Positions 3,971 through 61,899 of a stretch of DNA of 64,000 nucleotides are shown here, piece by piece (the stretch's first letter is position 1; each line of letters opens with the position of its first letter). A program made the translations under genes and the position numbers. The notes beneath the pieces were generated by a model, which saw only the letters and a program-made list of their open reading frames with translations, searched no databases and was not told where the DNA came from. This DNA is from Okamejei kenojei (taxonomy: Eukaryota). The stretch lies in assembly GCA_035221665.1 (NCBI GenBank), contig CM069149.1:43400001-43464000 (forward strand). Direction: 5' to 3'.

Positions 3971-3972
3971 TC

Positions 3973-4696
3973 CAGAACAGAGGACAGAAAGGGATCGGGT
4001 GGCCAATAGCCAGCAAAGCAGTAGGCAGGTAGTGCAGGAGTCCCCTGCGGTCATCTCCCTCCTAAACAAGTATACCATTTTGGATACTGTTGAGGGAGAT
4101 GGCTCACCAGGGGAATGCAGCAGCAGCCAAGTTAATGGCACCATGGATGGCTCTGCAGCACATGAGGGGGGGAAAAAAGAGGGGAATGGCAATAGTAATA
4201 GGGGATTCAATTGTCAGGGGAATAGATAGGCGTTTCTGCGGCCGCAAACGAGACTCCAGGATGGTATATTGCCTCCCTGGTGCAAGGGTCAGGGATGTCA
4301 CTGAACAGCTGCAGAACATTCTGGAGGGGGAGGGTGAACAGCCAGTTGTCGTGGTGCATATTGGCACCAACGATATAGGTAAAAAAAAGGAATGAGGTCC
4401 TACAAGGTGAATTGAGGGAGCTAGGAGATAAACTTAAAAGTAGGACCTCAAAGGTAATAATCTCTGGATTATTACCAGTCCCACGGGCCAGTCAGAGTAG
4501 AAATAGGAGGATATTGCAGATGAATACGTGGCTTGAAAAATGGTGCAAGGGGGAGGGATTAAAATTTTTAGGGCACTGGAACCATTTCTGGGGGAGGTGG
4601 GACTAGTACAAACAGGACGGTCTGTACCTGGGCTGGAATGGAACCAATGTCCTTGAGGGAGTGTTTGCTAGTGCTGTCGGGGAGGATTTAAACTAA
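3973..4696 (+). pseudogene. CR1 ORF1, SGNH/GDSL esterase domain (disrupted)
   Basis: Motifs IVIGDSIVRG, CLPGARVRDV, VVVHIGTNDI and DGLYL (normally DGLHL). Frameshifts at the homopolymer runs near 4170 and 4385, premature TAG at 4604-4606, terminal TAA at 4694-4696. Confidence 0.85.
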
Positions 4697-7672
4697 TGTG
4701 GCAGGGGGATGCGTACAAGAGCAGAGAGGCAGTTGGGTGTAAAACGAGGGTAGAAGCAATAGGGAGCAAGGTGAAAAGTAAAAGTGGCAGGCAAACAAAA
4801 CCAGGGCAAAAATCAAAAAGGGCCACTTTTCAACATAATTGTATAAGGGGTAAGAGCATTGTAAAAACAAGCCTGAAGGCTTTGTGTCTCAATGCAAGGA
4901 GTATTCGTAATAAGGTGGATGAGTTGAACGTGCAGATAGCTATTAATGATTATGATATAGTTGGGATCATGGAGACATGGCTCCAGGGTGACCAAGGCTG
5001 GGAGCTGAATATCCAGGGATATTCAATATTCAGGAGGGATAGAGAGAAAGGAAAAGGAGGTGGGGTAGCGTTGCTGGTTAGAGAGGAGATTAACGCAATG
5101 GAAAGGAAGGACATTAGCTTGGAGGATGTTGGAATCGGTATGGGTAGAGCTGCGAAACACTAAAGAGCAGAAAACTCTGGTGGGTGTTGTGTACAGGCCA
5201 CCTAACAGTAGTAGTGAAGTTGGGGATGGTATCAAACAGGAAATTAGTAATGCGTGCGACAAAGGCAAAACAGTTATAATGGGCGACTTCAATCTACATA
5301 TAGATTGGGTGAATCAAATCGGCAGGGGCACTAAGGAAGAGGATTTTTTGGAATGTATGCGGGATAGTTATCTAAATCAACATGTAGAGGAACCAACGAG
5401 AGAGCAGGTTATTTTAGATTGGGTATTGAGTAATGAGGAAGGGGTAGTTAGCAGTCTTGTTGTACGTGCCCCCTTGGGCAAGAGTGACCATAATATGGTC
5501 GAGTTCTTCATTAGGATGGAGAGTGACATTGTTAATTCAGAAACAATGGTTCTGAACTTAAAGAAAGGTAACTTTGAGGGTATGAGATGTGAATTGGCCA
5601 AGATTGACTGGCAATCAATTCTAAAAGAGTTGACGGTGGATACGCAATGGAAGACATTTAAAGACTGCATGGTTGAACTACAAAAATTGTTCATCCCAGT
5701 TTGGCAAAAGAATAAATCAGGGAAGGTAGTGCATCCGTGGATAACAAGGGAAATCAGGGATAGTATCAAAGCAAAGGATGATGCATACAAAGTAGCTAGA
5801 AAAAGAAGCATACCAGAGGACTGGGAGAAATTCAGAGACCAGCAGAGCAGGACAAAGGGCTTAATTAGGAAAGGAAAAATAGATGATGAAAAACTGGCAG
5901 GGAACATAAAAACTGACTGCAAATGTTTTTATAGATATGTGAAGAGAAAGAGATTAGTTAAAACAAATGTAGGTCTCTTGCAGTCAGAAACAGGTGAGTT
6001 GATCATGGGGAACAAGGATATGGCGAACCAATTGAATAACTACTTTGGTTCCGTCTTCACAAAGGAAGACATAAATAATCTGCCGGAAATAGGAGGGGAC
6101 CGCGGGTCAAAGGAGGAATTGAGTGAAATCCAGGTTAGTCGGGAAGTGGTGTTGGGTAAATTGAATGGATTAAAGGCCGATAAATCCCCAGGGCCAGATA
6201 GGCTGCATCCCAGAGTACTTAAGGAAGTAGCTCCGGAAATGGTGGATGCATTAGTGATAATCTTTCAAAACTCTTTAGATTCTGGAGTAGTTCCTGAGGA
6301 TTGGCGGGTAGCAAACGTAACTCCTCTTTTTAAGAAGGGAGAGAGGGAGAAAACAGGGAATTACAGACCAGTTAGTCTAACATTGGTAGTGGGGAAACTG
6401 CTAGAGTCAGTTATTAAAGATGGGATAGCAGCACATTTGGAAAGTGGTGAAATCATTGGACAAAGTCAGCATGGATTTACGAAAGGTAAATCATGTCTGA
6501 CGAATCTTGTGGAATTTTTCGAGGATGTAACCAGTAGCGTGGATAGGGGAGAACCAATAGATGTGGTGTACCTGGACTTCCAGAAGGCTTTCGACAAGGT
6601 CCCACATAAGAGATTAGTATACAAACTTAAAGCATACGGCATTGGGGGTTCAGTATTGATGTGGATAGAGAACTGGCTGGCAAACAGGAAGCAAAGAGTA
6701 GGAGTAAACGGGTCCTTTTCACAATGGCAGGCAGTGACTAGTGGGGTACCACAAGGGTCCGTGCTGGGACCCCAGTTATTTACAATATACATTGATGATC
6801 TGGATGAGGGAATTGAAGGCAATATCTCCAAGTTTGCGGATGACACTAAGCTGGGGGGCAATGTTAGCTGTGAGGAGGATGCTAGGAGACTGCAAGGTGA
6901 CTTAGATAGGCTGGGTGAGTGGGCAAATGTTTGGCAGATGCAGTATAATGTGGATAAATGTGAGGTTATCCACTTTGGTGGCAAAAACAGGAAAGCAGAC
7001 TATTATCTAAATGGTGGCCGATTAAGAAAAGGGGCGATGCAGCGCGACCTGGGTGTCATGGTACACCAGTCATTGAAAGTAGGCATGCAGGTGCAGCAGG
7101 CAGTGAAGAAAGCGAATGGTATGTTAGCTTTCATAGCAAAAGGATTTGAGTGTAGGAGCAGGGAGGTTCTACTTCAGTTGCATAGGGTCTTAGTGAGACC
7201 ACACCTGGAGTATTCCGTACAGTTCTGGTCCCCAAATCTGAGGAAGGACATTATTGCCATAGAGGGAGTGCAGAGAAGGTTCACCAGACTGATTCCTGGG
7301 ATGTCAGGACTGTCTTATGAAGAAAGACTGGATAGACTCGGTTTATACACTCTAGAATTTAGGAGCTTGAGAGGGGATCTTATAGAAACTGACAAAATTC
7401 TTAAGGGGTTGGACAGGCAAGATGCAGGAAGATTGTTCCCGATGTTGGGGAGGTCCAGGACAAGGGGTCACCCCTTAAGGATAAGGGGGAAATCCTTTAG
7501 GACCGAGATGAGAAGGACTTTTTTCACGCAGAGAGTGGTGGGTCTCTGGAACTCTTTGCCACAGAGGGTAGTGGAGGCCAGTTCATTGGCTATATTTAAG
7601 AGGGAGTTAGATGTGGCCCTTATGGCTAGGGGGATCAGAGGGTATGGAGAGAAGGCAGGTAAGAGACACTGA
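4696..7672 (+). pseudogene. CR1 ORF2, apurinic endonuclease plus reverse transcriptase, one frameshift near 5130
   Basis: APE motifs (CLNARSIRNK, ETWL, GGGVALLV, GVVYRPP, MGDFN, SDHN) and RT motifs (NYRPVSLT, LDFQKAFDKV, GVPQGSVLGP, FADD). The 155-aa and 848-aa ORFs join if one T is removed from gatgttggaatcg. Confidence 0.92.
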
Positions 7673-7760
7673 GTTGGATGATCACCCATGATCATATTGA
7701 ATGGCGGTGCAGGCTCGAAGGGCCGAATGGCCTACTCCTGCACCTGATTTCTATGTTTCT

Positions 7761-8700: not shown

Positions 8701-9029
8701 TTCAAAAACGCTGCCCACATTAAATAGCAATCTAAACGACATGTAGAAATGCCTCCAGAAATAAAAGATCAAGCCAAATCACCACACAACAATAATTGCT
8801 GCATTCCATCATCGGGACAGGAAAGTTAAATGCAACCCGGCAGTGACCTTTTGCAGCAAATGCTACAATATGAATCCTATTTATGAGCAAAGTTGGACTG
8901 CACATTAAATTTCCACTAGTACTTGAAGATGGTAACCAGCATGATGTAAAAAAGGCTCTCGATCTGGCTTCCTCTACATTGGTTACACCAAGAGAAGACA
9001 AGGTGACCACTTTGCGAATACGTGAGCTG

Positions 9030-9141
9030 TCCACGGGGCATCGTGGAGCTTACGGTTGCTGGATGATCAGCCATGATCACAGTGCATGGTGGTGCTGGCT
9101 CAAAGGGCCGAATGGCCTGCTCCTGCACCTATTGTCTATTG
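9030..9141 (+). mobile_element. Short CR1 3' tail
   Basis: gatgatcagccatgatcac...ggccgaatggcctgctcctgcacctattgtctattg. Confidence 0.8.
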
Positions 9142-9149
9142 ACATTTTG

Positions 9150-9620
9150 ATTTCCCTTCCTATTCCCAAACCAACCTATCTGTCCTTGGCTTCCTCCATT
9201 GGTAGCTTGAGGCCATTAACAGACTGGAAGAATAGCACGTCGTAGTCCATTTGAGAAGCCTTAAACCCAATGGCAAGAATATTGAATTCTCCAACTTTAA
9301 GTAATCCCCCCCCCCGACCGCCTCTTCCTCTACACTGTTCTTCCCCAATATCCCACTCATACTTATTTCCTGCTTTCCACTCCTCCATCCGTCACCCACT
9401 TCCATCTGCTCATCTTCCAGCCCTCCTTACTCCGGGTTCCTTATTTTTGTTCCTCCCCCTGGTGTTACATTACACTCCATCTTCCATCTTTATCAGATTT
9501 TACCTGAACCTCGTTGCCTTCTCCACTTTTCGCCTCAAGTCTTGGTTACTATCTCACTCATTTCCCTCCCACCCGACTCATCTGCTAATCAGCCACTCAT
9601 CATCATCATCATCCACCTCA
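9150..9620 (+). mobile_element. Penelope-like element fragment (GIY-YIG C-terminus and pyrimidine-rich 3' region)
   Basis: Decayed reading VLGFLH...RLEE*HV..HLRSLKPNGKNIEFSNF, matching the PLE C-terminal motif RxLEEQHLIFRLGxLxPxGMNIEFSNF. Confidence 0.7.
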
Positions 9621-9718
9621 CTCTTGCTCGTTCTTGCCACACCTCTTACAATTTGTAGCATCATGGTGACAGAATGAACACTCGGCAAATTCTTTAAAAT
9701 AGGTATCATAAACAGCTT

Positions 9719-9875
9719 GATAAACAGCTTGACGTTTCGGGTCTGAAGAAGGGTCTCAACCCGAAACGTCGCCTATCTCCTTCGCTCCTTAGATGCTGCT
9801 GCACCCGCTGAGTTTCTCCAGCTTTTTGTGTACCCTCGATTCTCCAGCATCTGCAGTTCCTTCTTTAAAAAAAAA
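9719..9875 (+). mobile_element. Short Penelope-tail-derived retroelement with hammerhead motif, oligo(A) end and 14-bp TSD
   Basis: TSD atcataaacagctt at 9705-9718 and 9876-9889; A-run at 9867-9876; near-identical inverted copy at 44945-45068. Confidence 0.8.
9743..9770 (+). ncRNA. Minimal type I hammerhead ribozyme motif
   Basis: CUGAAGA-A-GGGU(CUCA)ACCC-GAAAC-GUC; helix I GGGU/GCCU; palindromic ACGU helix III. Confidence 0.7.
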
Positions 9876-10175
9876 ATCATAAACAGCTTATTCCCCTCTA
9901 TTATAAGGCTTTTGAACAGTTCTTCCATCAGCGAGGAAACTGTCCGATTCACCTCCACCTCATTGTGGAGAGTGTTTTGTCTATGGAATGCTCCAATGGG
10001 TGCTACAATGCTGAGAACTATATTCTGCACTCTGTGTCTTCCCCTTTTCTCTATCTAACGTATTTTATTTTGACTTGATTGTATTTGTGTATGGTATATA
10101 TGCATGCTGTTTGGATGCAATAGCATGCAAAACAAGGATTTTTAGTATACCTATACATGTGGCAATAAACCTATA
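9876..10175 (+). mobile_element. Rex1/Babar-type 3' fragment
   Basis: NSLFPSIIRLLN C-terminus, then a conserved tail ending acatgtggcaataaac. Confidence 0.6.
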
Positions 10176-13739: not shown

Positions 13740-14010
13740 TTAAAACTAGGCACCAATGCCGCTGGTCTGCACCAACAAGCTCTTCTTCACCCACCGCACG
13801 GTCCAGTTCACATGGAGGTTGTTGCAGCTCACGTTGTAGCCCCTGGCCAGCAGCGTTTTCTTCAGGCCGCTGCCAATGACAGGACATGCTCAGTCAGCCT
13901 GGGGCTCCCTCCCCTCTCATCAGCTGCCATTTCTTCCTGTAGGCCGTCGCTTTGTCTGCTCCCTCCTCTACCGCCGCCTCCTCCTCCTTCTCCCCCGCAG
14001 ACGCCGGCAT
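13740..14010 (-). pseudogene. Linker histone H1-like fragment (copy A)
   Basis: MPASAGEKEEEAAVEEGADKATAYRKK..., PRLTEHVLSLAA/LKKTLLARGYNVSCNNLHVNWTVRWVKKSLLVQTSGIGA, compared with the H1 globular domain [40 protein letters not shown]. Confidence 0.8.
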
Positions 14011-14089
14011 CTTCCAAGGTGGAGTATGGTGGCTACTCTGGGGGAGAAGGAGGAGGATGTGGAGGTGTGGGGGTGGGGGAAGAGTACGC

Positions 14090-14370
14090 GTGGACAGAAC
14101 TATAGGAGGAGGAGCAGGTAGTGGTGTAAAAGGGAGCAGACAAAGCAACAGCCAACAGAAAGAAGCAGCAGCTGGTGAAAGGGCAGGGATCCCCACAGTG
14201 ACCAAGCATGTCCTATCAGTGGTGGCGGCCTGAAGAAATAGCTGTCCCCTGGGGGTACAACGTGAACCGCAACAACGGCTGCGTCAACTGTACCGTGCGA
14301 TTGGGGAAGAAGGGGGTAATGTTGGAAGCCGGGGCTGTAAGCTTCCAGGGAGCTGGTGCGAACCGGAGGA
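14090..14370 (+). pseudogene. Linker histone H1-like fragment (copy B, inverted)
   Basis: EEEQVVV*KGADKATANRKKQQ..., PTVTKHVLSVVAA/LKK*LSPG.YNVNRNNGCVNCTVRLGKKG...ELVRTGG; same GCGGCC|TGAAG deletion junction as copy A. Confidence 0.75.
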
Positions 14371-15224: not shown

Positions 15225-16260
15225 AATGTGAGTGTAGCTCTAAGAAAATGCAAGTCTGGGAATTAACAATTGATAACAAGAAGATAGCAGATAAATTAAA
15301 CAGTTACTTTGCATCAGTGTTCACTGTAGAGGACACAAGTAATATACCAGCAATAGCTATATATCAGAAATTGGAAGAGTGGAAAAGCATCACCAGAGCA
15401 GATAATGAACAAAGCAATGCCAAAAGAATATACAAACGAGTAAGTCAATGTGCTCCTTGAACTTGTTCTGCCATTAGATCATTGCTGGACCAACTCTGGC
15501 TTCAACGTTAATTTCCTGTTCGCATAACCATCAACTACTTTGTAGTTTACTTAACTCTCAACTACCATCTAGAATAAATTCAATGACTGTCTCTGCAACT
15601 CTGTGGTAGAGAACTTTGAAAAATCATAGGTAGACACAAAATGCTGGAGTAACTCAGTGGGTCAGACAGCGTCTCTGGAGAGAAGGAATGAGTAACATTT
15701 CGGGTCGAGACCTTCAGACTTTTGAAAAATCATGACCTTCTGAGAAAAGAAATACTTCTTCATTTCTGTCTTAATTGGGCAATACCTTAAATTATTCTGA
15801 AATTATCTTCTCAGAGTCAATCCCTCTCAGAAGTTCATACAATCACTTCACTTACTGTACTTTTAAATTCCATTGAGTATAGACCCTACCTGCTCTTTGT
15901 TCAACCCTTAAACTCCAGGAATCAAATTATTGATTTTTTTTCTGCACTGCCACCGATCTTAGTTAAATTAAAGAGACCACAACTGAACAGTGTATTGCAA
16001 GTACAGTCTCCCTACTTCCCTGTAAGGTTGCATTAACATTTCCCTTCTTTGATGCATTGCAATAAATGTCAATGTTCCATTAGCCTTCCTATTTGCTTAT
16101 TTGCATTCAAGTTTTCGTGTAATTTGCATAATAATTTGCTTTCCATTTTTCCTTCCGCATAGCATTCTTTAATGTTTCTGACCATATTCCACCTACCAAC
16201 TTCTTGTCCACCTACCAACTTCTTGTCCACTTACTAAAACTACCTAGCTCAGTTTGCTTG
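15225..16260. mobile_element. Degraded CR1 fragments (sense piece 15225-15370; antisense piece about 15450-16260)
   Basis: ELTIDNKKIADKLNSYFASVFTVEDTSNIP (CR1 ORF2 linker), then antisense 3' CR1 words. Confidence 0.6.
15628..15720 (-). mobile_element. Penelope-tail short element with 13-bp TSD
   Basis: TSD tttgaaaaatcat at 15615-15627 and 15721-15733; degenerate hammerhead motif (tttcgggtcgagaccttcagac). Confidence 0.75.
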
Positions 16261-23420: not shown

Positions 23421-24950
23421 TATCTTTACATACTCTTCGACAAAGAAGAACTGGTGCTATATCAGTTGCTATCCAAAGCAAAAGGCTGCCAAGCTGCAAA
23501 TGGAGAATCACCTGTATTAATCACATACACTGTATATGTTTTGAACTCTTATCTTATACTTAACATTGTCACCTCTAAATATTGATGCACTAAAAGTTAT
23601 AAATCAACATAATACAAAGATAATGATGGATAATGCTATTTGGGAGATTAAAACTACATTTCAATTAGTGATCTACACAAAGGTTAGAACAATTCATAGT
23701 TTATTACATAATATAATAATACCATATCTAGCTTTATTTTGTGTCAAAGCTGATGTTATTTGCTGTTATGCTCTGGCATACACTATTCAATTCCTCACCC
23801 ACCTTGGATTTATGAACTGCAGAAAATGCAATTTAATCACAGAGGAAAAACATTATCTTCAAGTCCACTAAATACAGATAAATAAAGCAAATGGAGACAT
23901 TTGGAAACAAAAGAACAAATTTCCATCCATCAGTTTTGTTTACTTTAAATATTACATTCTCATTAATCACTCTGTTATTCTGGAATGTAAAGATGCTGAG
24001 ATTTGACAAGTCTCTTGTATGATTTCTCCAAGGTAATCACTGGAGTTGAAAAAGTGAAAAACTTGAAATATACACATTTAAATTGTCTCCTATTATCAGT
24101 TGGAGTGAACAGTTTCATCAATGGCACTTCAGTCTTATACTGAATATTGCAATTAGCCCTCCTTGCTGGACATGGCAGGAAAGCTTGTTACAATATAATC
24201 TACAGGTATTGTCGTAACAAAATAGTTGCCTACCAAAGAAACCTCGTATTAGAGAAGCAATTGAGTCAATGAGGAAAAGGAGTTAGGGGTCAGACAATTT
24301 CAGACTTGCAATAACAAAAATTGTTTTTTCTGCAGAATTCTCAAAAATAGGGGCCTTTTTAATACCTATAAGTTTATTTTTGTTACTGGGAGTGAAAAAC
24401 ACTAAAGCTGTACATTACATTGTTCCACAGCATTTCATTGTACAAGTATCAATAAAAGCATGTGTATGAAAGAACTATAGACACTGGTTTAAATCGAAGG
24501 TAGACACAAAATGCTCTGAAGAAGGGTCTTAACCCAAAACATCACCCATTCCTTCTCTCCAGAGATGCTGCCTGTCCACTGAGTTACTCCAGCAGTTTGT
24601 ATCAATCAAAGCAAATACTTGTGAATCTCTCTGGCCCGCTACGGTGAAACTGACAGACTGTGTTCTTAAGAAACAATGCCGTTTGATTACTGTGGGGAGT
24701 TTACATGGAAACATATTTTTCCCAGGACTGTATTTTTGCAAAACTGCTTTTTATTCTGCTCGTCAATTTCCAGATTTACTTGAGTGGTTCTCTAGTTCCG
24801 GATCAAAATCAGGCTACAACCAATACAGCAGGCATAATACAAATAGTATTCCCCAATTCATCAAACATGTCATATCAAATTTGCATTATGGAAACATACG
24901 TTGTTGAAGAATTACCTGTACTTCCGAAAATCCTTTACCTTTAGGATAAC

Positions 24951-27886: not shown

Positions 27887-28168
27887 AGCGCCTGTCCCAC
27901 TTACGCAACTTTTTCGGTGACTGCCGGCACCCGTCATAGGTCATTACAGGTCGCCGAAATCCAGCAGCGACCAGAACAAGGTACGACTCTTTCGGCGACT
28001 ACTCACGACCATACAGACTTCACCCTTGTTGCCAGGGAGTTGCCTGTATGGTCGTGAGTAGTCTCCTTGTCACCCAAAGAGTTGTAGCGTCTTTCTAGTC
28101 GCCACTGAATTTTCAACATGACGGGTGCCGGCAGACGTCGAAAAAGTCGCGTAAGTGGGACAGGCGCT
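27887..28168. mobile_element. Palindromic PIF/Harbinger-like MITE (282 bp) nested in a Penelope tail
   Basis: TIR AGCGCCTGTCCCACTTACGC / GCGTAAGTGGGACAGGCGCT; arms pair almost to the centre (gactactcacgaccataca / tgtatggtcgtgagtagtc); flanks TTA/ATA. Confidence 0.85.
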
Positions 28169-29640: not shown

Positions 29641-32498
29641 CTGGGATGAATTTAAAAAGACGTGCACACTGACAGCAAGAGATTTTTGCATCTGGGATTG
29701 GATTGTTTCTTACATTCTTTGTGGGTGAACTCAGATTGCAAGCAGCTGAATGTGAGATTTATGGTTAAGGCTTAGATTATTGTATCAGATTGTTCCAACT
29801 TGTTTAACCATTTACATACAGGACTGCGTGATGATTCAGTTAGATAACACCAGAGAGTAGTACAAATGGCTACAGATCTCCCATTGATGAAAATAATTTA
29901 ACTTACTTGCAGCAAGGCAAATGGCAAATTATGTGATGACATGCTTCAATATTAACTTCATATGTCCTTGATTTACTTAAAATTAAAAGGGTTATTTTCA
30001 AAATCTTTTGTCATGCAGAGAATGGGAATAATTGTTGTCTTTACTCCAGGAATTAGATATGTCAAACGAAGAAATAAAAACGGTAAGTACTTGAACTATC
30101 CAGCAAATCAGGCAGCATTATGTAGAACAGGAAACAGTTAACGTTTTTAGTTAATGATCTTTCATAGGAACTGGAGAAGTGAGAAAACAAAGGACTTTTA
30201 AGTTGCAGAGAGGGAGAGACAGAGTGCATGCAACAGAAATAATATGCTGAAACTGCAAAAGGCACACAGGTCCAGCATGTTCTTTTGATTTTCTTATTCT
30301 TACTTTCTCTCTCACTGCCCTCATTCACAAAGCATTGTGTCACCTGGGTAGCCATGATCCCACCCTATTAGTAACATTACTTTTGATCACCACCCATCCC
30401 CCTTTTTGCAATTTAAAACACACTTGTTTTCTCACGTAACAAAATCATTAAATGCTGGAAACACTCAGCAGGTCAGGCAGCACCTGTGGAAAGAGAAACA
30501 GATGCTGCCTAACTTGCCGAGTGAGACCTCAGTGGTAAGAAGGCTTCATGTGGCAGATCACTGAAGACACTGATAGCCTTTGCCAAGAGGAAAGGCAGGG
30601 GGCAGAGCCTCATCTCCTCAGAAAATCTGGAAGGCCTTGCAATAGATTTCAAATGTCTCCAATCTTCACATAATTTCAATAATTTTTGATTGCTTTATAT
30701 ATTTGAAAATAATAAAAATTATGAAAGCACTAAACAGTAAAAATATTGAAATAAAGTGAAAAAGTATGACATTAATGAATAACCAAATGTGTATATTCCC
30801 ATCTAATCTACAGGACCAGAATTTTCAAGAGTGGTGGATTTGCACAATTCCAGGTCTCACTTTGCTTAAAACACTCAAGCCCTGGATAGCCATTTCCTTT
30901 TGGGACTGTGTAACATTTGTACAAAGTCTTGATTGGACTCCATTCAATTTGGGCACTGACTTTCAGGAAGGTGCCATTGAATGCAGATTTCCATGTTTCA
31001 ACCAGTGTCCTCAGAATCATATGGGATGGTAGTAAAAATTAGGTTTGTGTTCCTTCAGTATAGAAATGAAGGGTCATTGAAACAAGGTGTGCAAAATCAT
31101 TCAGCTAGGTAGATGCAGAGAAGCAACTTCCACCACATATCAAAAGGACATCACCTCAAAACAATGCTTGGACCATTTGGGATTAAACAACAAAGTACAT
31201 TTTCATGTGAAGTATTTGAGTGAACAGAATCAAGCTTTCACCTGCTGCCATTTATTCTTTGCTCCCTCTGAATCTCCAAATTTAGCATTTGTGTTTGACT
31301 ATCGCCATACATTAACAATTCAAGTGCAAGTGTAAGACAAAAAAACCCCACAATTTTGAAGAAGGGTCCTGACACGAAACATCACCCATCCCTTTTCTAC
31401 AGAAATGCTGCCTGACCCGCTGAGTTACTCCAGCACTTTATGTCTATCTTCAATACAATTTGACAGATTAGTTTGGCTTGGCTGAAATGGTTTCAAGATC
31501 TAGGGGCCATCATCCACTCTGTATGGTACCAACATTATATTCCTTTAGTATAGCCTTTAGTATTGCCTGATACTTGTTATTTTAACCATAGCTTATGGGG
31601 AAAGCCACCTTACAGGTCTGCTGACAAGCAGTGATGGATATAACTACAACAAGCTAACATGTTTTACAGTTACAGAGACTGCAGATGCTGGAATCTGGAG
31701 CAAATTAACAAACTGTCAGAGGAACTTAGTGGATAAGGTGCAACTATGGAGAGAAATGAACAGTCAACGTTTTGATTAGAGACCCTTCACTTCATCATCA
31801 TCCATGTGAAGGGTCTCAACATAAAAGATTGACTGTCAGGTCCTCTCCACAAATTATCTCTAGTGGGTTCAAAGGGCTACATCACCCACCATTCCTCTAA
31901 CTGTGGTGACAAGAAACTGCAGGTGCTGGAATCTTGAGCAAAATCTGAAGTAGGGTCCCTCTATAGATGCTGCCTGACCTGCTACCTTCCTCCAACATTA
32001 TTAGACGAAGGCAGCAGGTCAGGCAGCATCTATGGAGGGACCTTACTTCAGATTGACGAAGGAAATGAAAGCTGGAAAAGAGAGGACGGAGCAAGCTAGG
32101 CGAGGTGGCAGGGGTAGATTAAATGACAAAAGCTAGAAGTGAAATGGAGTCAAACTTTGTCAGATGAGTTATGAAATGTAAAGTCCGGACAGGGATAAGA
32201 GTAGAATAGGATAAAAGGGTGGGGAAAGAGGGGAAACACAAACATATTGAAAGTCAGGATCACTGACCTTGTCACAAGTCACTGTTTTAAGCCTTAAAAA
32301 TAAATAATCTTTCATTTAAAAAAAATTCAAACAAAAGATACACAACATAATGACCATATTTTATAACCACTAACACCAGTAAGTTCCAATCCATTCGTGC
32401 AGATTAATCTGCATATGTGCAGCAACTTCCAGTGACTTTGCACAAGCAGTAACATTTGGAAAATGCTGTCTGAGATTGGATCTTCTTGATAAACTCAC

Positions 32499-35885: not shown

Positions 35886-37449
35886 CAACTCATTTATGTT
35901 CATGCAACGTTCTGCATCTTTGCTATGTTTGAATAATGAATACATGTTAAAAGAGGTGTTGCATTAACTTTCATGGTTGTGAATGATGTCGTATGTAAAT
36001 GAAATTTGTTCCTAACAAGATGAGGCAGGGGTTGGATGTGGACAGGAGGGCATGATCAGGGACCCATACATTAGTTAGATTAGCCTGCATAAACAATAGG
36101 GCATATGATAACTGAACGCTTGCTTAATGGCAAAACTCCCACCGCTTTTATGATAGTGCAGATGAGAGTTTGTTTTAAACACTTATGAATGGAAGTAATT
36201 GGGTGAACTTCAAACCATCAGAAAGAGCATCCCAGGTTCATTCATCCTCTGTCAGCACTAGTTTCATCCACCCCCACACCATTACCTCCACCAACCTCAC
36301 CAGCGCTCAATTTTAGATGACATTCATCAACCATGTCAAAAATTTACACTCCAATTCTACAAATCTCCCCTCTCAAAAAGTGGACTTATGACAAGGTAAC
36401 TACTGCCACAAGTCGCTCATTAAGATTCATACCACTGTCAATACAATTCCAATGTAATTACACACAGCCCAACACTGTTTTGAACACATTTAGAACAAGA
36501 CCTGGAGCAAGCATTCTTTACTGAACAATGACAGAATCAACTGTTCCAAAGTCCACATGATTCGTTCTGCAAAAGGTTGTTCTAGTAACTATGGCAGCAG
36601 ACAAGTGATGTCTGGGTCACAGAAAATTTAGGAGTGCAGACAAAACTACATAGTATGCTATCAATTTAATAGCCCATGAGCCAACACCTGCGTGAACCAA
36701 CTAAACAAACACAGGCAGGCAACAACCATATAATTCTGTAACCAGGTTTGCGCTGCATTAGCATCTATGTCAGGTCTTTTAGCTTTGTTTTTAAATGTAC
36801 AAAAGTACGAACAAAAAAAAAGATTTGAAGCAGCGAAAAATACTTTACCTCCACACAAATGAAACTATTACAAACCATTACAGATAATCAGTTTGAAATT
36901 GTCAAGTGAGCGGTGCCATTATAGATTTAGTATATTTCTGCAATCTGCGATGGACATTGCATTCTAAATAGGATTCTACATTTCAGATTTTATTGATTCA
37001 CACAAATAACTTGGTATTTTCAGCTCCTGTAAACTTGTTATAAAGATCTAGAATTGCTTTAGTTCGTTGAACTAAACTGATAAGCTTCCTGAATGTCTGT
37101 AAAATCATAACCTTTATTGTTAAGCTAGAAGATATTTGCGGTTCCATTAGGCCCATGCCTTCAATGGGAGCTTCAGTCAGAGCATTTCTATCCCATTGGC
37201 ATCACAAAATGTCCACACAAAGAACTGCATACGCTGGTTTACAAACTGCTGCTAGTTTCGAGGCAGAGTCAATTTTCTAGTCGCTAGATTATAATTCTAT
37301 CCGACATACATGTGCCAAATTCTAATGCGAATCAATGTGCTGTGATTTAAAAATAAATCTATATTTGCATTTAAAAAATCAGTTTTAATCTTGTGGGTTT
37401 GAGACAAAAATCAGGCAAGAAATTGAGAGAGTGCAGATAAGTTAGAATA

Positions 37450-37925
37450 AATAGATCATATTCTGCTTGGGTAGTAGCTTGCAACCTAATGGCATGAACA
37501 TCACATTTTCCAATATTGGGTAACTAATCCACAAACACCCTCCCTTCCACCCCCCTCCTTGCCTGTGCCCCATGTGGATTTGCACCCATTTCTCTCCTTC
37601 CCCGTTCCCTTCCACCTGTATTCCTTCCTCTGGCTTCACAAATCACACTTCTTCTGTCCTTATCTCCCATTTTTTGTATTTTCGTCTCTTGGCCTTTGTC
37701 CAACCATATTCCTCTCAAACCACCCCCCCCCCCCCCCCAACTCACCTATCACGCCAGTTTTTGTCCTGCTCCAATCTCTCTTCCTGCAGTGACGAATAAA
37801 TTTGACTTTGTCTTTTCTTTCTCCCCCACCACAGTCAGTCTGAGGAACGATCCCAATCAGAAACATCACCTATCCATGTTCTCCAGAGGTACTGCCTGAT
37901 CCGTCGAGTTATTCCAGAACATTGT
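37450..37925 (+). mobile_element. Penelope-like 3' fragment ending in a degenerate hammerhead tail
   Basis: IFCLGS.LQPNGMNITFSN, a pyrimidine-rich tract, then cagtctgaggaacgatcccaatcagaaacatcacc. Confidence 0.7.
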
Positions 37926-40414
37926 TTCATTTTTATCAGAATAAATTTGATGGATGTGTTATGACATTTCAATGCTCGAAAAGGTGAGAAATTTGTATCT
38001 TATCACAAAGTTCCATGATTGATTGGCGTAGTAGACTTGATGGGCCAAATGGCCTAATTCTGCTCTTATCTCTTATGATCCTACGAAGCCTTCAAAATAT
38101 ATTTCTATATTTCTATATATTTCTATATTTTGGAGAATGCATTACAAGAACGTTACAATATGCATAGAAATGAACCAATTGACTGTGACCAACTCTTTCC
38201 TCATAACCAGGAACTGGGAGAATCGTTTACTATTTACTCAATTACTGTTACCAGACAGTAATTTCAGAGATTTTGAATACTAATTTACTAGAGGTAGTAT
38301 TATTTGTGGAATCTGGGAATCGAGCCCAAGGGATAGCAGCTGTGCAATAGAGAGTTAACTCTAATAAAGTGCAGTCAGAAATGCAAAGCTGCCAAACTAT
38401 CCAAAGCCAGGTTAAAAGTGCTGGATGGCCAACAGAAGGAAGTATGTGCAGTGAAGCACGAGACAAAAAAACAGAACAGGAAAAGTACAGCCAAGGTCAG
38501 TTAGATGTTGCAAGTTTTGTGGATGGCAATATAACTAACTGAAAAAACATCCTTCAAATGTGAATGAGAGCACATTGAGTAGATTGGAAAATTATTTCTT
38601 CAAATAGTGCACAAAAAAGACAGATTTTAAGTGTGTTTTATACATACAGAGGCAAGGTTAGAGTATCATTTGAACACAATTTATTAGGGGCCATACAAGG
38701 CTCACTCAGTGAAAGGTACACCCACTGAATGTCATTTATAAAAATGTTAGTTAAAGCGAAATAGTGACAATTCAATTTGACTGGGAATAACCGGTAATGC
38801 TCCTGTAAAGCGATCCAATAATTTTGGGCGATGCAATTAAACTCTGTGTGCTTTGTGCTATACAGTAGATGTGCCACAAGCCTGCTACTAACTAAGCCAA
38901 TTGGGAGATTTTCTTTAAAGGTGCTAAGCTCAAAGCTTGGGTGTGGCCAATTCAATATTTCTGTGTAGTATTTGGACATTTTTTCCAAAGTGGTCTAAGC
39001 TCAGAGTATGTTCATTGGTATGTTTAGGGCATATCTTACTCTGTCACCTGAGCAGTTTTGTAGCTATGACTATCACTTAATGTGAAAATTGTGCTTTCAG
39101 TACTAACATCAGAATTTTCATCTGAATAAAACGCCTGAAGATGGGTCTCACCTATCCATATTCTCCAGAGATGCTGCATCTGCAGTCCTTGTTTCTATAT
39201 CAATAATTACCTTTTGTTTCAAGACCAGTACTCAATCATATGACCACAATGAGATAGCAAAAGTATCTTATCCCTGTATTCTTGAAGTTACAATGATTGA
39301 GGTCATCAATTTCCGGCTCTGAGTGGTAATAGCTGCTAATGATCCCAAAAGATTTCTCGTGGTCATTATGCTTGATAATTTGATGCATCACTTACAAACC
39401 TCAATGTCCTTGTTATATTGTAGTGTACCAGAGATTTGCCATTCAGACCCGTTTCCAAAGATCATGTTTCTTGTTGTGCTTTGGTCCACTTCTATTTCCT
39501 AATCTTCTCTGAGTTACTGCAGTGATGTAAGTACTGTGGTAAGTAAGAATCTGTAAGATAAACAATCTGTGTGTGTAAAAGGTACTAGAATTGTTTACGT
39601 TTTACATTGTGGTGATGTAAATGCTCAAGAAACTCAAAAATATGTCGATTTTATTTTGCTTCAACTGTGATGCCTCAGTTACATAGTTGGTGGTCAAGAC
39701 CCTGGATGATCGTGGCCATTGTGAATTAAAAGATTTTCAGTAGGGATGTGATTCTGTATTTCAACTCAGTGTAGGAATGTAGGCCCTTTACAGTGAGATA
39801 CTGTTGATTCTTCTCATCCAATCTTGCTGTACATGTGTTCAACAAACCCAGTCTCATGAAAAATTTGATTCTTGCCAACTCTGCCATAAATCATCAAATG
39901 TTTGCACTGGGATTTGTTGACTGGGAATCACTGTGTTTGCTGCTTAATCCGACTGCCTTGTCAATCTTCAATTTAGTTTATTATTATTGTCACATGTACT
40001 GAGGTACAGTGAAAACATTTAGTTGTGTGCTATCCAGTCAAAGAAGACTATAGATGATTACAATCAACAGCATTCAGAGTTTTTGCTGTTCTTTAACATG
40101 ATTCAACTGAGTGTATTATCAGCCAAAAAAACATTTCCATTGCTTCCATGAATGACTTACATACTGCATTGAACACCCCAAGGCTGATAATGTTAACTGT
40201 CTGCACTTGAGCCATCATTTTGCCCAATTTTCTTGCCCCGAGTCTCCTGTACGCTTCACCTTTTCAATAGTTGGTGTGCTTCCATGTACATTTAAATGCA
40301 GCCTACTTGTCTTTTTATTATACTACTATTATTTGCTTTCCCCTTTTCTTTTATTGATTTGGTGGTGTCTGTGCAAATATACCAACTAACTTTATACCCA
40401 GACAACTAGAGGTG

Positions 40415-43018: not shown

Positions 43019-44938
43019 TATAGCAGTCACCGGAGGTACCGACACCACCACTTTAAAATCATCCAAACTGATTTGCGGAGAAGTGAACCAAAATTCAGAA
43101 TTCTCTCCCAAGCTAACAGGCTCACATCAGAGCTCTCAATAACCTGGGAGGCCACAACAACTATGTGCCTTTCAATACAACCTTTCCCACCCAAAAGATC
43201 ATTCAGGCAAGCCATACTAAGAAAGACAAAAAATGTGAAAGAAAATAAATTAAAAAAGAACATTCCATGCAACATTACTATCAAAGCCCCATTTTAAAAA
43301 AAGTTGCAATATCCAAACCAATTAATTGGAGTCCGTGAACACTTGTAGGAGCATTCAGAAAAAAACACCAAGCAGCTATTCAGAAGGAGTCTTCAATGGA
43401 GTAATGGAGGGTAAGCAGAAATGGCTGAAGAAGCTTTTTAGTCTCACACAACCTTATCCCATCAGGCACCTCATGCCCCACCAGTGGAAGAGTCCATTGG
43501 TACCACATTACCCACATCAGAACCCACCCAATCGTAGTGAAACAAATCCCCCTTGACTCCAAGGAAATGTCTTATTATTGTACTGACATGCTAGAAACAA
43601 GAATGGGCAATCCCACTGAATGTATTGGTTGAAGATTGAAATATTTTATGCTTCCAGTCCTGCAATGATTAGTTTTTGTATTACGCTGCTCTCCTAATGA
43701 TATACGTTTAAGGATTCTGACTTATTACATGTACCAATAATGAAAGTCTCACACTGAAAATATCAACATGAACCAAGTTAAATATCCCAACACATTAAAT
43801 GTAACAGCTAAATCATACTGTGCCAAGAACAATCAACCACACCCAAACATTAACACCACAGACTTGCAGGATAGAAACATCAACAAATTATGCCTTATGA
43901 CTTTGCAATTAATTAACTATCCAAGAAAACTCTCTCTGCTATGCTTGGAGACCAAACACCAATGATAAATATGCAGGGTTAATTCTGGGTCTTGTTTAAT
44001 CATTGACAAAGACTTTATTTAGAGTCAAAAGCTGGTTGCAGTTTGCTGAACTGAGCAAACAAAAATTCAAACACAACTTGGGTGATCAGGCTTAGTAGAA
44101 ACATTATCAAGATTCACAGTTCACTTATGAATATACAGTACATGTCAACCTAGAAAACAAGCAATAGCTGACAACTCAATGGTGATCCTGACCATAAGCC
44201 TCCAAAAGGAAAAAAGTAGTCACAGGAGCTTTATAGTTTCAACTGTGAAATGCACACTATTCCTCATTTAAATTGGATAAATAAATATAAGTATTTGGAA
44301 GACAGGTGAAGAAATATCAATGTTGGAGATATAATATTTATTTTTGTTGGGTCCAGATGATGCAAGTGAAGGATCAAGTTAAATTAATCTGGATGGAAAG
44401 TATTAGGACTCCTTTCTTCATATGCCAAAAGCCAGAATTCAGTGGTTATAGTCATAATTTCAATATATTGGCCCCTGCTGAGAATGGAATGGTTCCAAGT
44501 AGCAACACAATTCAGGTAGAATAGTGTTGGTGGGAGAGTGTCCTGGGACACATAATCTGCTCGATGCCAAAACATTGAGTCATTATAAATGGTTTACGAT
44601 GATTGGCTGCCACTTGTAAATCACTTATAAATGTTCGGGGGTCAGAGGATCTGTAGAGGCACACCTTATTTGTTCTAGAATTTAATACGCCTACTTGATG
44701 ACCACTATTAACTGTATATTAAAAACTCAGTTTTGTGCTTCTGCGCTGTAACTCGAGTGGTCTCAATTTAGAATGACATACATTGAAGGGTGTATAATAC
44801 AAAGCACTATTGCCTTGGAGTTATATTTAATCTGTGTTTTAATATATTGTTCCCCTTCTTTTCATAGAAGTTTAACAATTTTAGGCACTTGACAAATTAT
44901 AGGCCAATAAATGAATGGTAGCAGGGATTGAATTAATA

Positions 44939-45173
44939 CGTCTTAAAGAAGGAACTGCAGATGCTGGAGAATCGAGGGAACACAAAAGGCTGGAGAAACT
45001 CAGCGGGTGCAGCAGCATCTAAGGAGCGAAGGAGATAGGCGACGTTTCGGGTCGATACCCTTCTTCAGACTGGTCAGGGATCAGGGAAACGAGAGATATA
45101 GACGGTGATGTGGAGAGATAAAGAACAATGAATGCTGCTGCACCCGCTGAGTTTCTCCAGCCTTTTGTGTACC
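44939..45173 (-). mobile_element. Young Penelope-tail element with partial inverted duplication and 12-bp TSD
   Basis: TSD attgaattaata at 44927-44938 and 45174-45185. Confidence 0.8.
45041..45068 (-). ncRNA. Minimal type I hammerhead ribozyme motif
   Basis: Minus strand CUGAAGA-A-GGGU(AUCG)ACCC-GAAAC-GUC with an intact core. Confidence 0.7.
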
Positions 45174-45236
45174 ATTGAATTAATATGGTCAAGTTCTCTG
45201 AAGAAGTAATGGAGAGTTGATTTGGGTAGTAAAAGT

Positions 45237-45420
45237 GAACTGCAGATGCTGGTTTATACCAAAGATAGATACAAAATGGTGGAGCAACTCAGCGGGTCAG
45301 GCAGCATCATGGATAGGTGACATTTCAGGTTGTGTCTGAAGAAGAGTCCCTACTGAAATGTCACCTATCCATGTTCTCCAGAGATGCTGCCGGACTCGCT
45401 GAGCTTTATGTCTATCTTTG
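45237..45420. mobile_element. Fold-back Penelope-tail element
   Basis: Inverted arms (ctcagcgggtcaggcagcatc / gatgctgccggactcgctgag) around a degenerate ctgaagaagagt...gaaatgtc core. Confidence 0.7.
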
Positions 45421-45539
45421 ATTAGTGTAGTTCATCCAGTCTGAATCTTCCAAAGGAATTTTATAAGTAGCACAATATAGTTTTGGCAGCAACATTAATG
45501 CATGAAAAATAAGAAAAAATTACAACAAGTGAACAGAAG

Positions 45540-56698: not shown

Positions 56699-57029
56699 TG
56701 TTCAGGTATCTTAAAGTACATAACTGGTAGTTTTGTGGTTACCATTACTTGATGTCAACCAAGGATAATTCTTATTGAATTTAAGTTTGGCAGCTGCTAT
56801 GGTGAGATTTTAACATGTGTCTCGAGATAAACACGGCAGGCTGCTGTTTTTGGTAGTTTAATGTTATCTTGATCTATAGCATTTCAGGTCGAGACCTTTC
56901 CTCAGTCTAAAGAAGGGTCTCGAACCAAAACGTCACCCATTCCTTCTCTCCAGAGATGCTGTCTGTCCTGCTGACAAACATTTTGTGTCTAGCTTCGATT
57001 TAAATCAGCATCTGCAGTTCTTTCCTATA

Positions 57030-58419: not shown

Positions 58420-59355
58420 CTGCATCTGTAGAGGGAGATGGATATTCACCATTTCAATTCATGACCCTATATCTGAGCTGAAATAGAGGGGTGATAGGCA
58501 GTGTAAAGAGGTGCAGGGTAGGACAAGAATAAGCAAGCAATCAGTGGATACAGATGAGAAGAAGGAGGGTTTCGGCCTGAAACGTTGCCTATCTCCTTCA
58601 CTCCTTAGATGCTGCTGCACCCGCTGAGTTTCTCCAGCTTTTTGTGTACCCCAGATAAGAAGGGGTTGATTGGCAGATGGAGTCAGCAAAAGGGGCCGAG
58701 AGGTCAATAGGTGGAGGCAACAAAAACAGGTGGGGCTGCAGATGATGAAATCTGATGGTAAAGGAAGGTGAGGTATGGATCCAGATGATGGAGGCAAGAC
58801 AGATGGGAACTATGGATTGGAGAAGGGGAGGAGGGCTGATGGGATCCAGTGAGAGGAGTGTGTGGGTGATGGAAAGATGAAATTGGTGGGAGAGGGGAAA
58901 GAAATGGGTCTTGGGGGCTGGGATTGAAAAGGAGAAAGTGCATGTGAAACAACCTAGGGAGACAGATTGGGACAGAGGGGAAGCAAGTTACCTGAAATTG
59001 GAGAATTCAATATTCATGCCATTAGGTTGTAGACTAGCCAGGTAGAATACGAGGTGCTGTTCCTCTTGTTTGCATTTTGCCTCAATTTGCAGTGAAAGAG
59101 GATGGGGAAGGTTGGTGTGGGAAAGGGAACTGCAATTAAAATAGCTTGCGGCTGGGAGCACTAGAAGGCCATGGTGGGCAGAAAGCAGGTTCCCTCAACA
59201 AAGTTGTCTTACTGCTGCAGAGGAGGCGACATCAAGGGCACTGAATGCAATAGACAAAGATGGAGGTGGTGCAAGTGATTCCCTACCTCACTGGGAAGGG
59301 TAGTTTAGGCCCCCAAATGACAGCAAGGGAGGAGGTGCAACACTTCCGACAGTTG
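58420..59355 (-). mobile_element. Penelope-like element fragment with GIY-YIG endonuclease remnant and a nested younger tail at about 58562-58651
   Basis: Minus strand CTSSLAVIWGPKLPFPVR*GITCTTSIFVYCIQCP*C... and QEEQHLVFYLASLQPNGMNIEFSNFR; the nested tail is flanked by cagat(g/a)agaag. Confidence 0.75.
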
Positions 59356-59784
59356 CAGAGGTAAGTTCCAACAAAATGGGAGTGATGTGAAAAACCATCA
59401 AGGAGAGTGTGAATCCTACAGAAGGCAGAATGGAGTAGGGAGGAGAAAATAATCAAACTCACATGCATGTTCAGTTTGTGAAGTACCATGTCTAAAATAA
59501 TGCATGACTTGAAAATGGGTTCTGTGTAAAGCAGCTTGCCTTTTTTTGTTTAAGATCTACAATTAATTATTTTAGCCATCACTGTATCCCCAGGACTATG
59601 CACCCAGCTGGCAGAGCATCCTGTGAAACATTGCCTTGAAACAAGCAGGTGAAGAGATTACACCCCCTATTAACACAGTTTGTTAATTAACATACAATGC
59701 ATCCTCTCTGTACTCATGAAATTTGCCTTGAAAACTTACTAAACACTAAAACAAAAGCAAATAATGATACTTAAGTATTCATAC

Positions 59785-59862: not shown

Positions 59863-60982
59863 CTGTAGACAGAAGACAAATTGCAAAATTAGTAAGGAAT
59901 TTAAATATTTGCGTAAGAGCAGACGATAAAGTTATTTAATCATTTAATTTGTTTTTAGTTCTTCGAGTTTCAGCACTGTCTTTCTTCCAAAACATGTATT
60001 TGGCTTCTGTCCCTTCTTTTTAGCTGTAACAAGTTGCATGCTACACGGCCTGTCTGAGGCTATCTCATCAATGTTATTCCTTCCTGTACAGTGCACTGCC
60101 TCTAACAAGGCATTGATGCAAGATGCTATATTTAATGACAAGTCGTCCTTTTCACCATAATCTGAAAATAGGGGAAAATGCTGTGAAAACAGAATAACAC
60201 CAGTCACCTCCTCTTAAAAGAACGTTATGCCCTTATGAACATACAGTTTTGTTGGAGGAAAGAGTAACTTCTCTGTCTGGGATGGACTAAACCACTGAAC
60301 CACAAAAGTATTAGTAGACTAAGCAAATGGGCAAACTGTGGCAATAGATTTTCAACATATACATATGTAGAATGGCATTTTCAAAACCAGGAAAAAAAGC
60401 TAGAAGGTTTCAAAGGTTTTTTTATTGTCACATGTACCAATTAAGGTACAGTGATATGCAAATGACCTTATAGCCATACGGAAAAAAAAGCAACACAAGA
60501 CAACAAAGCGGAAGCCAATGGTCCAAAGAAAGTGAGGTTCACAGAGACGGATCATTAAACTATTATTGGTAGGTCAAAAGAAAAATCAAAAATGGCCAAT
60601 GGAAAAGTAGCCACCACATTGAAAGGACTTGAGTACAACTGGTTACAAGTTATGTAACAGTAGTACAAGTTATAATTAAAACCCATTCAGAATACAGAGC
60701 AGTTCTGAATGGCATATCTAAGGAATGATACACAGGCTTGGAGGAAACAGGATATCTCAGTAACCAGAGATTACCCCGAAGGTTGAGATGATCTGATTCA
60801 AATTTTCAAGAGATGTCTTCATGCCCTTCTACAACATAGACAGCCTTCCTTTGGCGCTCAAAGCATTTCCTCACTCATTTCCCTGTAATCTGCCCTCTTT
60901 CACGTTACCCATGACTCCATGATTCTGGTCCTGCTCGCCTCCACTAGAGGTTATTTAAACTAGCCATTAATCTACCAATCAA

Positions 60983-61210
60983 TAGGTTAGAAACAAGGAA
61001 CTGCAGATGCTGGTTTGCACAAAGGGACGCAAAGTGCTCGAGTAATTCAGGGGTTCAGGCAACATCTACGGAAAACATGGATAGATTACGTTTTGGGTCG
61101 GGACGTCTGAAGAAGTATCTCGAACAGAAACATCACCTCTCCCCGTTCACCAGAGGATGCTGCCTGAATCCCTGGGTTACCACAGCACTCTTGTGTCCTT
61201 TCGTGTAAAC
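60983..61210. mobile_element. Fold-back Penelope-tail element with 11-bp TSD, inserted into a SINE body
   Basis: TSD ctaccaatcaa at 60972-60982 and 61211-61221; inverted arms around tctgaagaagtatctcgaacagaaacatc. Confidence 0.75.
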
Positions 61211-61899
61211 CTACCAATCAACATGCCTTGGGGAAATTTATAATTAGAACAACGTCAGTCAAAAGTAAAGTTAAGAAATTAAACGGTGATAAAAATGTGG
61301 AAGTCTGTTCCAGGTTAGCTGTTGATTTAAAACCTAAGATTGTTTAATAACATTTTAAGGAATAAATAGAAAAGTAGGAAAAATTGAGCTAAGCTCACTG
61401 AATGCTAAAAACAAATCTCGGTTAAATAGCCTCATCCTGTTCTATCCTGTAACTCGCTTTCTCATTCTGAAATATTTATCTTATTGTTCAGGTAATTTTG
61501 AAACGTTTACAGGAAATTAACGGTAGGTAGACACAACATGCTGGAGTAACTCAGCGGGACAGGCAGCGTCTCTAGAGAGAAGGAATGGGTAACGTCTCGG
61601 GTCGAGACCCTTCTTCAGACTGATGTAAATGAACGATATTTTTGCAATATTTCAAAATGCATTCGATTTGGATTAATAAAATATGGTGTATGCAGAATAA
61701 TCCCTGCTTTTAGGAGAATGTGTCCGTGTATTTTTTTAAACGTTTTAAATAAACAGCTCAAACAAAACACAGCTATTTTTAATTAAGCTATTACGTTTAC
61801 ACAACAAAAATGCATTTTTTTTTTAAATGGACCGCTTAAAATTAATTACTCTCTGCATTAAATATGCCATTTTTTCGATGTGGGTTCGGCAGTTTACAG

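Follow-up and report, generated by a model that had tools for sequence, protein, structure and literature searches.

Short hammerhead-bearing repeats of Okamejei kenojei as candidate end pieces of a Neptune-type Penelope-like element

In a 64,000-nucleotide stretch of Okamejei kenojei DNA (assembly GCA_035221665.1, contig CM069149.1, positions 43,400,001 to 43,464,000; hereafter the window, whose own numbering is used throughout), the short repeats that carry a minimal type I hammerhead motif appear, from their sequence, to be end pieces of a Neptune-type Penelope-like element (PLE), the Neptune assignment being made by a linker motif and not by a tree. Their arms commonly start at one and the same point, the 5' edge of the hammerhead. 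The best explanation for this, and in our estimate a probable one, is that the short repeats are direct PLE products, namely cDNAs that ran off to the 5' end of the RNA. PLE hammerheads, dispersal by truncated copies and pLTR-derived retrozymes are already published, and the finding mainly adds a host lineage; the shared start point of the arms may also reveal where the parent RNA begins.

A re-implementation of the published descriptor of minimal hammerheads (supplement file 2 of PMC4209133), applied to the 64 kb, recovered the core with helix II at exactly two places, 9743-9770 on the plus strand and 45068-45041 on the minus strand, which are the two intact cores that a first-pass annotation of this DNA had named; in 40 Markov shuffles the average number was 0.05 and the maximum 1. 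Both motifs conform to the core pattern CUGANGA(N), helix II, GAAANNUH. The order of elements is CUGAAGA, an extra A, helix II (4 bp with a 4-nt loop), GAAAC and GUC, with C17 at 9770, and the minimal type I motif, the palindromic ACGU helix III and the extra A proposed earlier were all seen in the sequence. The full descriptor, which includes a helix I of at least 3 bp, was passed in the window by the 9743 motif alone, and the 4-bp helix I of that copy is supplied, by chance, by a foreign inverted arm. The native helix I is 2 bp in all five further arms of the younger subfamilies that were tested, which places them below the 3-bp threshold, and 0 bp in two old decayed arms. The first-pass annotation had overlooked both the 2-bp native helix I and the foreign origin of the focal one. 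Among 27 Rfam matches at E<=5 there was no hammerhead family, and only hairpin-type miRNA models fell over the inverted pairs.

The focal copy, 9705..9889, is built as follows.

9705..9718, plus strand: left target-site duplication (TSD) of 14 bp, an exact match to 9876-9889 that outscores all 600 random pairs
9708..9732, plus strand: 12-bp tandem duplication over the left junction (TRF period 12, 2.1 copies, 100%)
9730..9741, minus strand: short inverted arm, the reverse complement of 9759-9770, which starts opposite C17 and buries the core by pairing
9743..9770, plus strand: minimal type I hammerhead core with CUGAAGA, extra A, 4-bp helix II, GAAA, ACGU palindrome and GUC; predicted cut after 9770
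9771..9875, plus strand: remaining pLTR end, with the optional tail of about 35 nt and a short A run
9876..9889, plus strand: right TSD

The duplication at 9708..9732 may stem from a re-primed start or from later slippage. Over 127 columns the focal arm shares 96.9% identity with a UTR-bearing arm (60 nt of UTR) at 44942-45073.

A family HMM built on 15 seed arms (nhmmer, E<=1) gave 40 matches in the window, whereas the reversed window gave a single one at E 0.7. Arms shorter than about 25 nt escape this model. All nine sites previously listed as degenerate versions proved to be family arms. At least four subfamilies can be told apart by eye; representatives of three of them are 63-73% alike to the focal one. 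An arm consists of the hammerhead motif, about 70 nt of sequence and an optional tail of about 35 nt, and the 3' ends fall mainly into two groups about 35 nt apart. Arms lie singly or as inverted pairs between TSDs, many loci having a minus arm followed by a plus arm with the tails outward.

Insertion as units with TSDs had been claimed from five flanking duplications. When 23 loci were compared with 600 random pairs, none of which scored 12 or more, five loci stood above all random pairs (9705/9876, 15615/15721, 24446/24599, 44927/45174 and 60972/61211), in agreement with that claim. Four of the duplications are exact, with 14 bp at 9705/9876, 13 bp at 15615/15721, 12 bp at 44927/45174 and 11 bp at 60972/61211. 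The one at 24446/24599 (15 bp, one mismatch) is an addition, and the previously described 58551/58652 (11 bp, one mismatch) is real, with a weaker score (p ~0.02). A significant TSD was absent at 17 of the 23 loci. The A+T content of the six TSDs is 55-92%. The principal copies besides the focal one are these.

15615..15733, minus strand: single short arm with a 13-bp TSD; its 5' end is the A of the AGT preceding the core, and the core has a deletion
24446..24613, both strands: inverted pair with the 15-bp TSD (one mismatch); the short minus arm comes from the long tail, and the plus arm begins at the core edge
31354..31454, plus strand: single degenerate short arm
44927..45185, both strands: young inverted pair with a 12-bp TSD; the minus arm has the long tail, 60 nt of UTR and, at 45068-45041, an intact core whose helix I is 2 bp
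45132-45173, plus strand: short plus arm of the young 44927 pair
45228..45424, both strands: older inverted pair; the plus arm begins at the core edge
56878..57027, both strands: inverted pair without a significant TSD; the arms meet at a TCAG-T-CTGA palindrome
58551..58662, plus strand: young short arm with an 11-bp TSD (one mismatch), nested in the UTR of an older PLE; it begins within CUGAAGA
60972..61221, both strands: inverted pair with an 11-bp TSD; long-tail minus arm and short-tail plus arm from the core edge
61517..61623, minus strand: single short arm with a GAGA change in the core; its 5' end lies a few nt upstream of the core

A further pair, at 31942-32054, is joined tail to tail (54-nt arms, 91% complementary), the reverse of the usual arrangement, and scores below the cut-offs of the miRNA hairpin models.

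The motif can be identified as the pLTR end of a PLE because at two loci (37392-37936 and 58421-59501) an ORF end runs through a UTR into the hammerhead; overall it runs on into PLE UTR in 5 of the 21 arms that reach the core. The UTR between ORF end and hammerhead is 73-76% pyrimidine. The Penelope origin put forward earlier is upheld by this continuity of ORF, UTR and motif, and so are the GIY-YIG remnants assigned to the parent class, which match the stingray PLE protein P0003 at three places: 59501-58991 on the minus strand (E 1e-20), 8945-9301 on the plus strand (E 1e-12) and 37392-37517 on the plus strand (E 0.006). The frame at 58991-59140 on the minus strand matches two stingray proteins, in keeping with a ray- or shark-like genome. 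P0003 itself has a PLE reverse transcriptase (RT) followed by a linker of the form C-x3-C-xx-C; its GIY-YIG match is weak, with an E of 8e-4 that falls short of the Pfam cut-off. The remnants in the window cover P0003 residues 265-449; the RT is observed only in this relative, and the linker is degenerate yet aligned in the window remnant. Three remnants can be distinguished.

8945..9650, plus strand: older separate PLE remnant with the endonuclease end at 8945-9301, a LINE 3' end inserted at about 8991-9139, and a UTR of 76% C+T
37392..37936, plus strand: continuous 5'-truncated PLE with ORF end, pyrimidine UTR (75% C+T), degenerate hammerhead and short tail
58421..59501, minus strand: longer old PLE remnant with linker and GIY-YIG end (59501-58991), UTR and degenerate hammerhead at 58470-58421

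A hammerhead arm was sought downstream of the 8945..9650 remnant and none was found; at 9640-9655 its UTR appears to break off roughly where other copies have the TACAAT ahead of the core, which is the same boundary met from the opposite side. The window contains neither an RT remnant upstream of P0003 residue 265 nor a full-length parent, Pfam gave no match on two of its remnants, and for P0001 there was no homologue at E<=0.01. The features of endonuclease-bearing (EN+) PLEs that are present comprise a GIY-YIG linked to the repeat, inverted pLTRs, an optional tail of 30-40 bp and TSDs. In the accessible parts of PMC8557442 a CX2-5CxxC linker marks Neptune and Nematis, and of these two it is Neptune that has been reported from fishes (PMC4209133). 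A start of the ORF within the tail found no support from arm translations, whose best listed match to the N-termini of 150 relatives had an E of 0.34.

Alignment of 35 arms showed that 14 end before the core and 21 reach it. Among the latter, 16 end no more than about 10 nt from the 5' edge of the core and 5 enter the UTR, which gives a stop rate at the edge about 12-fold above that before the core, a value inflated by the arms under about 25 nt that the HMM misses; a TSD or a partner arm defines the position of no more than 12 of these 16 edges. The stop point is common to subfamilies that are merely 63-73% alike, three of which also have UTR-bearing copies. Its sequence is (T/C)CAGT, 3 nt before CUGA, which we take to fit the Initiator consensus YYANWYY. 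The edge motif is short, and would also suit a 3' splice acceptor that follows a pyrimidine tract, an arrangement known from D. virilis (PMC4209133). In the loose-end consensus from other genomic copies AGTCTG is kept in all 12 rows listed, with A/T-rich sequence upstream, and the C at -1 is lost in 3 of those 12. Joints at 45070-72 make up 8 of the 15 among the joints listed (1597 others), a count confounded by UTR differences between the subfamilies.

In the mechanism that we favour, the PLE protein would nick both strands of AT-rich DNA and initiate cDNA synthesis internally on the RNA, at a pair of neighbouring 'tail' sites. The parent's ordinary RNA would begin at A(+1) of the Initiator-like (T/C)CA(+1)GT, and RT would run off after 100-135 nt to leave a short copy with a fixed 5' edge, so that UTR- or ORF-bearing copies would come only from read-through RNA. 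The hammerhead would then be inherited cargo, relevant, if at all, in the parent's protein-bound RNA; an RNA that starts at the A of CAGT would limit the 5' strand of helix I to 3 nt. For another PLE, the accessible text of PMC11167929 describes nicking of both strands of AT-rich DNA, internal RT starts near the 5' end of the ORF, and shorter products from 5'-shortened templates.

The same PLE could also have produced the edge through a block to RT, as it copies unspliced nuclear RNA, at a 3' splice site (pyrimidine tract and CAG) occupied by splicing factors, or through fold-back at the TCAG-T-CTGA palindrome, which we consider unlikely. The pyrimidine-rich UTR (73-76%) ends in CAG immediately before the core, two of the three remnants have a donor-like GTAACT behind the ORF end, two stingray gene models exit the PLE frame right after FSNFR, and an intron of D. 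virilis ends at helix I (PMC4209133), all of which speak for the splice-site block; for fold-back there are the palindromes at inverted junctions reported in the accessible part of PMC3846280 and the 56878/56902 arms, which join at such a palindrome. Fold-back alone is insufficient, however, since the partnerless arms at 15623, 58561 and 61517 end at the same edge, and a spliced template is not indicated, the ORF-end exon being joined to the core in none of the 16 edge arms inspected by eye.

Independently of the edge, the stingray models P0003 and P0004 leave the PLE frame right after FSNFR, at a point where the element has a donor-like CAG/GTAACT (58978-59005, minus strand), and in P0004 the PLE endonuclease end is fused to a VKOR domain. 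Going by these sequences, the PLE may lend a splice site to host genes, and its pyrimidine UTR may be an intron.

The first-pass annotation had read the repeats as a separate retrozyme- or SINE-like family, which we do not retain: no tandem array with the motif and no tRNA gene was found in the window, and the motif is continuous with the UTR and ORF of the PLE. Within the window the hammerhead motif occurs in none of 20 TRF rows, and the 40 HMM matches include no adjacent same-strand cores; there is no tRNA gene in the window, and no tRNA-, 5S- or 7SL-type Rfam family lies over any arm. The repeats in the window thus lack the tandem units of retrozymes and, as far as tRNA-gene and Rfam matches show, the Pol III head of SINEs. 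An independent SINE-like solo retrozyme, whose short masters are transcribed alone and mobilised in trans by the PLE protein, is in our judgement quite improbable. Such an origin would suit the facts that most arms are without UTR or ORF, have TSDs and are highly abundant, and accessible portions of the literature state that pLTR sequences are enough for trans mobilisation (PMC3846280) and that animal retrozymes derive from pLTRs (bioRxiv 10.64898/2026.07.22.740005). It has to contend with the short focal arm that is nearly identical to a UTR-bearing one, with a UTR that is itself abundant and longer elsewhere, and with the missing tRNA gene, and it would have the same edge arise separately in every subfamily.

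Conservation across the arms is higher in the core (190/211) than downstream of it (1540/1990; Fisher p 6e-6, subfamilies pooled), the outcome that the earlier reading had called for, and this fits selection on the source elements. All catalytic residues are retained in 5 of 12 core-spanning arms, and helix II as well in two. In 11 of 24 arms G12 has become A, a pattern of CpG decay that is also seen at C15.2, G16.2 and C17. Folding places the hammerhead form of the focal locus at -8.9 kcal/mol, 17 above the minimum free energy (MFE) of -26.0; the core there is buried in a perfect 12-bp hairpin, with a predicted pairing probability of 0.000 for helices I and II. When the RNA was simulated from 9740, with the inverted arm excluded, the probabilities rose to about 0.6 for helix II and about 0.4 for helix I. 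For 45131-45010 the hammerhead fold lies 12 kcal/mol above the MFE, and a dimer with helices II and III enforced lies 5 kcal/mol above its own MFE.

On these models the ribozyme looks inactive in place in the dispersed copies. The minimal hammerheads of PLEs are inactive as monomers and weak as dimers, and that of D. virilis likewise has a helix I of 2 bp (PMC4209133); according to the accessible parts of the sources, PLE hammerhead cleavage depends on protein (PMC11167929) and 8 of 9 Xenopus dimers were without cleavage (bioRxiv 10.64898/2026.07.22.740005). The suggestion that the family could cleave any transcript it lands in is not sustained, in view of the 2-bp helix I, the sequestered focal core, the CpG decay and the monomer-inactive or protein-dependent behaviour of published motifs; given the 2-bp helix I, the antisense arms and the CpG decay, we would not expect cleavage of host transcripts by dispersed copies. 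An active non-LTR retrozyme, with units that self-cleave, circularise and cut host transcripts on landing, is very improbable. It could appeal to the core conserved across subfamilies, to the 5 of 12 arms with every catalytic residue in place, and to rare contig joints that could be head-to-tail pairs elsewhere in the genome. It conflicts with the absence of the motif from tandem arrays and with a cut site that is internal to the unit instead of being its boundary, as well as with the 2-bp helix I, a hammerhead fold 12-17 kcal/mol above the MFE (5 in the dimer) and the frequent A at G12.

The oldest subfamily (31675-31853, 30085-30169 and 22505-22635) has a GACTG behind the cut site that is the complement of a CAGTC-like stretch ahead of the core. 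This suggests an ancestral helix I of 4-5 bp that the younger subfamilies may have lost; its copies are much decayed.

Two arms start at the predicted cut site. The inverted arm at 9730 starts exactly opposite C17, and the minus arm at 56878 (about 31 nt) starts no more than 2 nt away from the cut site and reaches the 5' edge of the core, so covering the predicted 31-nt 5' cleavage product. They are 2 of 41 arms (the 40 HMM matches and the 9730 arm found by eye), they were noticed post hoc, and the 56878 locus is without a TSD; among the rows listed for aligned contigs there is no peak of arm starts at the cut site. As a weak hint from sequence, the two arms might point to cleavage in vivo. 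It is doubtful, though conceivable, that the short copies record the ends of PLE RNA, with the edge as transcription start and the arms 9730-9741 and 56878-56908 primed on the ~31-nt 5' cleavage product. If true, this would be fossil evidence that the PLE hammerhead cuts in vivo during integration despite its 2-bp helix I, and with about 1e5 copies cut-site priming would be countable genome-wide. The function of PLE hammerheads is called unclear in the accessible text of PMC8557442; an abundant family with a sharp 5' edge and cut-site arms would let it be tested from genome sequence, and the same family would serve to examine whether short solo pLTRs arise by internal initiation of RT.

To gauge abundance, contigs of four sequencing runs (of 24 listed) were aligned to 44750-45500. 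Summed contig depth in run X5 is 1.6e7 on the core and about 28 on the unique flank, which is not a true copy number; it bears out the very high copy claimed before and indicates a family on the order of 1e5 copies. Depth over the UTR is 3-5e6, and a loose end at 45134 shows that the UTR extends further in other copies. Contigs of organisms A and B cross the left junction of the 44927 insertion. The contig match in organism C ends at 44926, immediately short of the left TSD, and 82 letters remain; under an empty-site model these would be 45174-45255, ending just within the next repeat, and judging by this contig end the 44927 site is probably empty in organism C. Contig pieces that stop at 45041 were rejected as a sign of cleavage: the base after GUC varies between subfamilies, and alignments end there. 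Exact-pattern scans of metagenome, viral and prokaryote contigs yielded 0 loci, and a search with P0003 gave 3 weak metagenome loci and 0 viral loci.

Among known systems, the minimal hammerheads of PLEs in PMC4209133, reported there from the fish elements Xena, Poseidon and Neptune, share with the present family CUGANGA with an extra nucleotide, G10.1-C11.1, the palindromic 15.2-16.2, the mostly dispersed single motifs beside truncated PLEs, and opposite-strand pairs. Unlike their descriptor, with helix I of at least 3 bp, the native helix I here is 2 bp, as in D. virilis, and helix II is 4 bp. The words 'Shark', 'Callorhinchus' and 'Leucoraja' are absent from two supplement files of that paper. 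The Neptune EN+ PLEs covered by the accessible parts of PMC8557442 and PMC3846280 resemble the family in a C-terminal GIY-YIG after the CX2-5CxxC linker, heavy 5' truncation, inverted pLTRs, an optional 30-40 bp tail, short TSDs and an Inr-like pLTR motif. The TSDs are 11-15 bp here and 8-10 bp in the rotifer PLEs of those sources, in which, as far as accessible, a single endpoint shared by most arms at the 5' edge of the hammerhead was not found described.

The Anolis Poseidon element PAc, as described in the accessible portion of PMC11167929, belongs to another clade, and its ORF begins in helix II. It is comparable in having two 3' ends that match two internal RT starts, as well as AT-rich targets, extension of both strands and a hammerhead upstream of the tail. 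That portion states that RNA reads ending at the cut site were not found and that cleavage is dispensable in vitro; a discussion of short-copy 5' edges was not found in it. With animal non-LTR retrozymes, reported from one chondrichthyan genome in the accessible parts of PMC7229834 and bioRxiv 10.64898/2026.07.22.740005, the repeats have in common a type I hammerhead, a relation to pLTRs and a non-coding nature. Retrozymes are there arranged head to tail in tandems of 150-450 bp, and the cases tested have canonical hammerheads and circular RNAs, whereas the present arms are dispersed, single or inverted, and carry minimal motifs. Among the titles and abstract openings listed in our literature search, none dealt with this family or with a fixed 5' edge; Repbase or Dfam may well contain the family, and the supplementary tables of the preprint may list it.

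A scan of 33 of the 51 long ORFs in the window brought no host exon to light. A near-intact LINE at 3894-7760 has an ORF1 fragment with a GDSL esterase, an endonuclease and an 867-aa open RT frame (5069-7672); its 3' end recurs at least nine times, and it is presumably related to CR1/L2. Long inverted repeats at 41372-43020 (arms of 143 and 90 nt, 88-89%) flank a frame without a Pfam match, which we take to resemble a Tc1-like transposase. MITE-like inverted repeats lie at 13851-14244 (141-nt arms, 78%) and 27887-28168 (51-nt arms, 92%).
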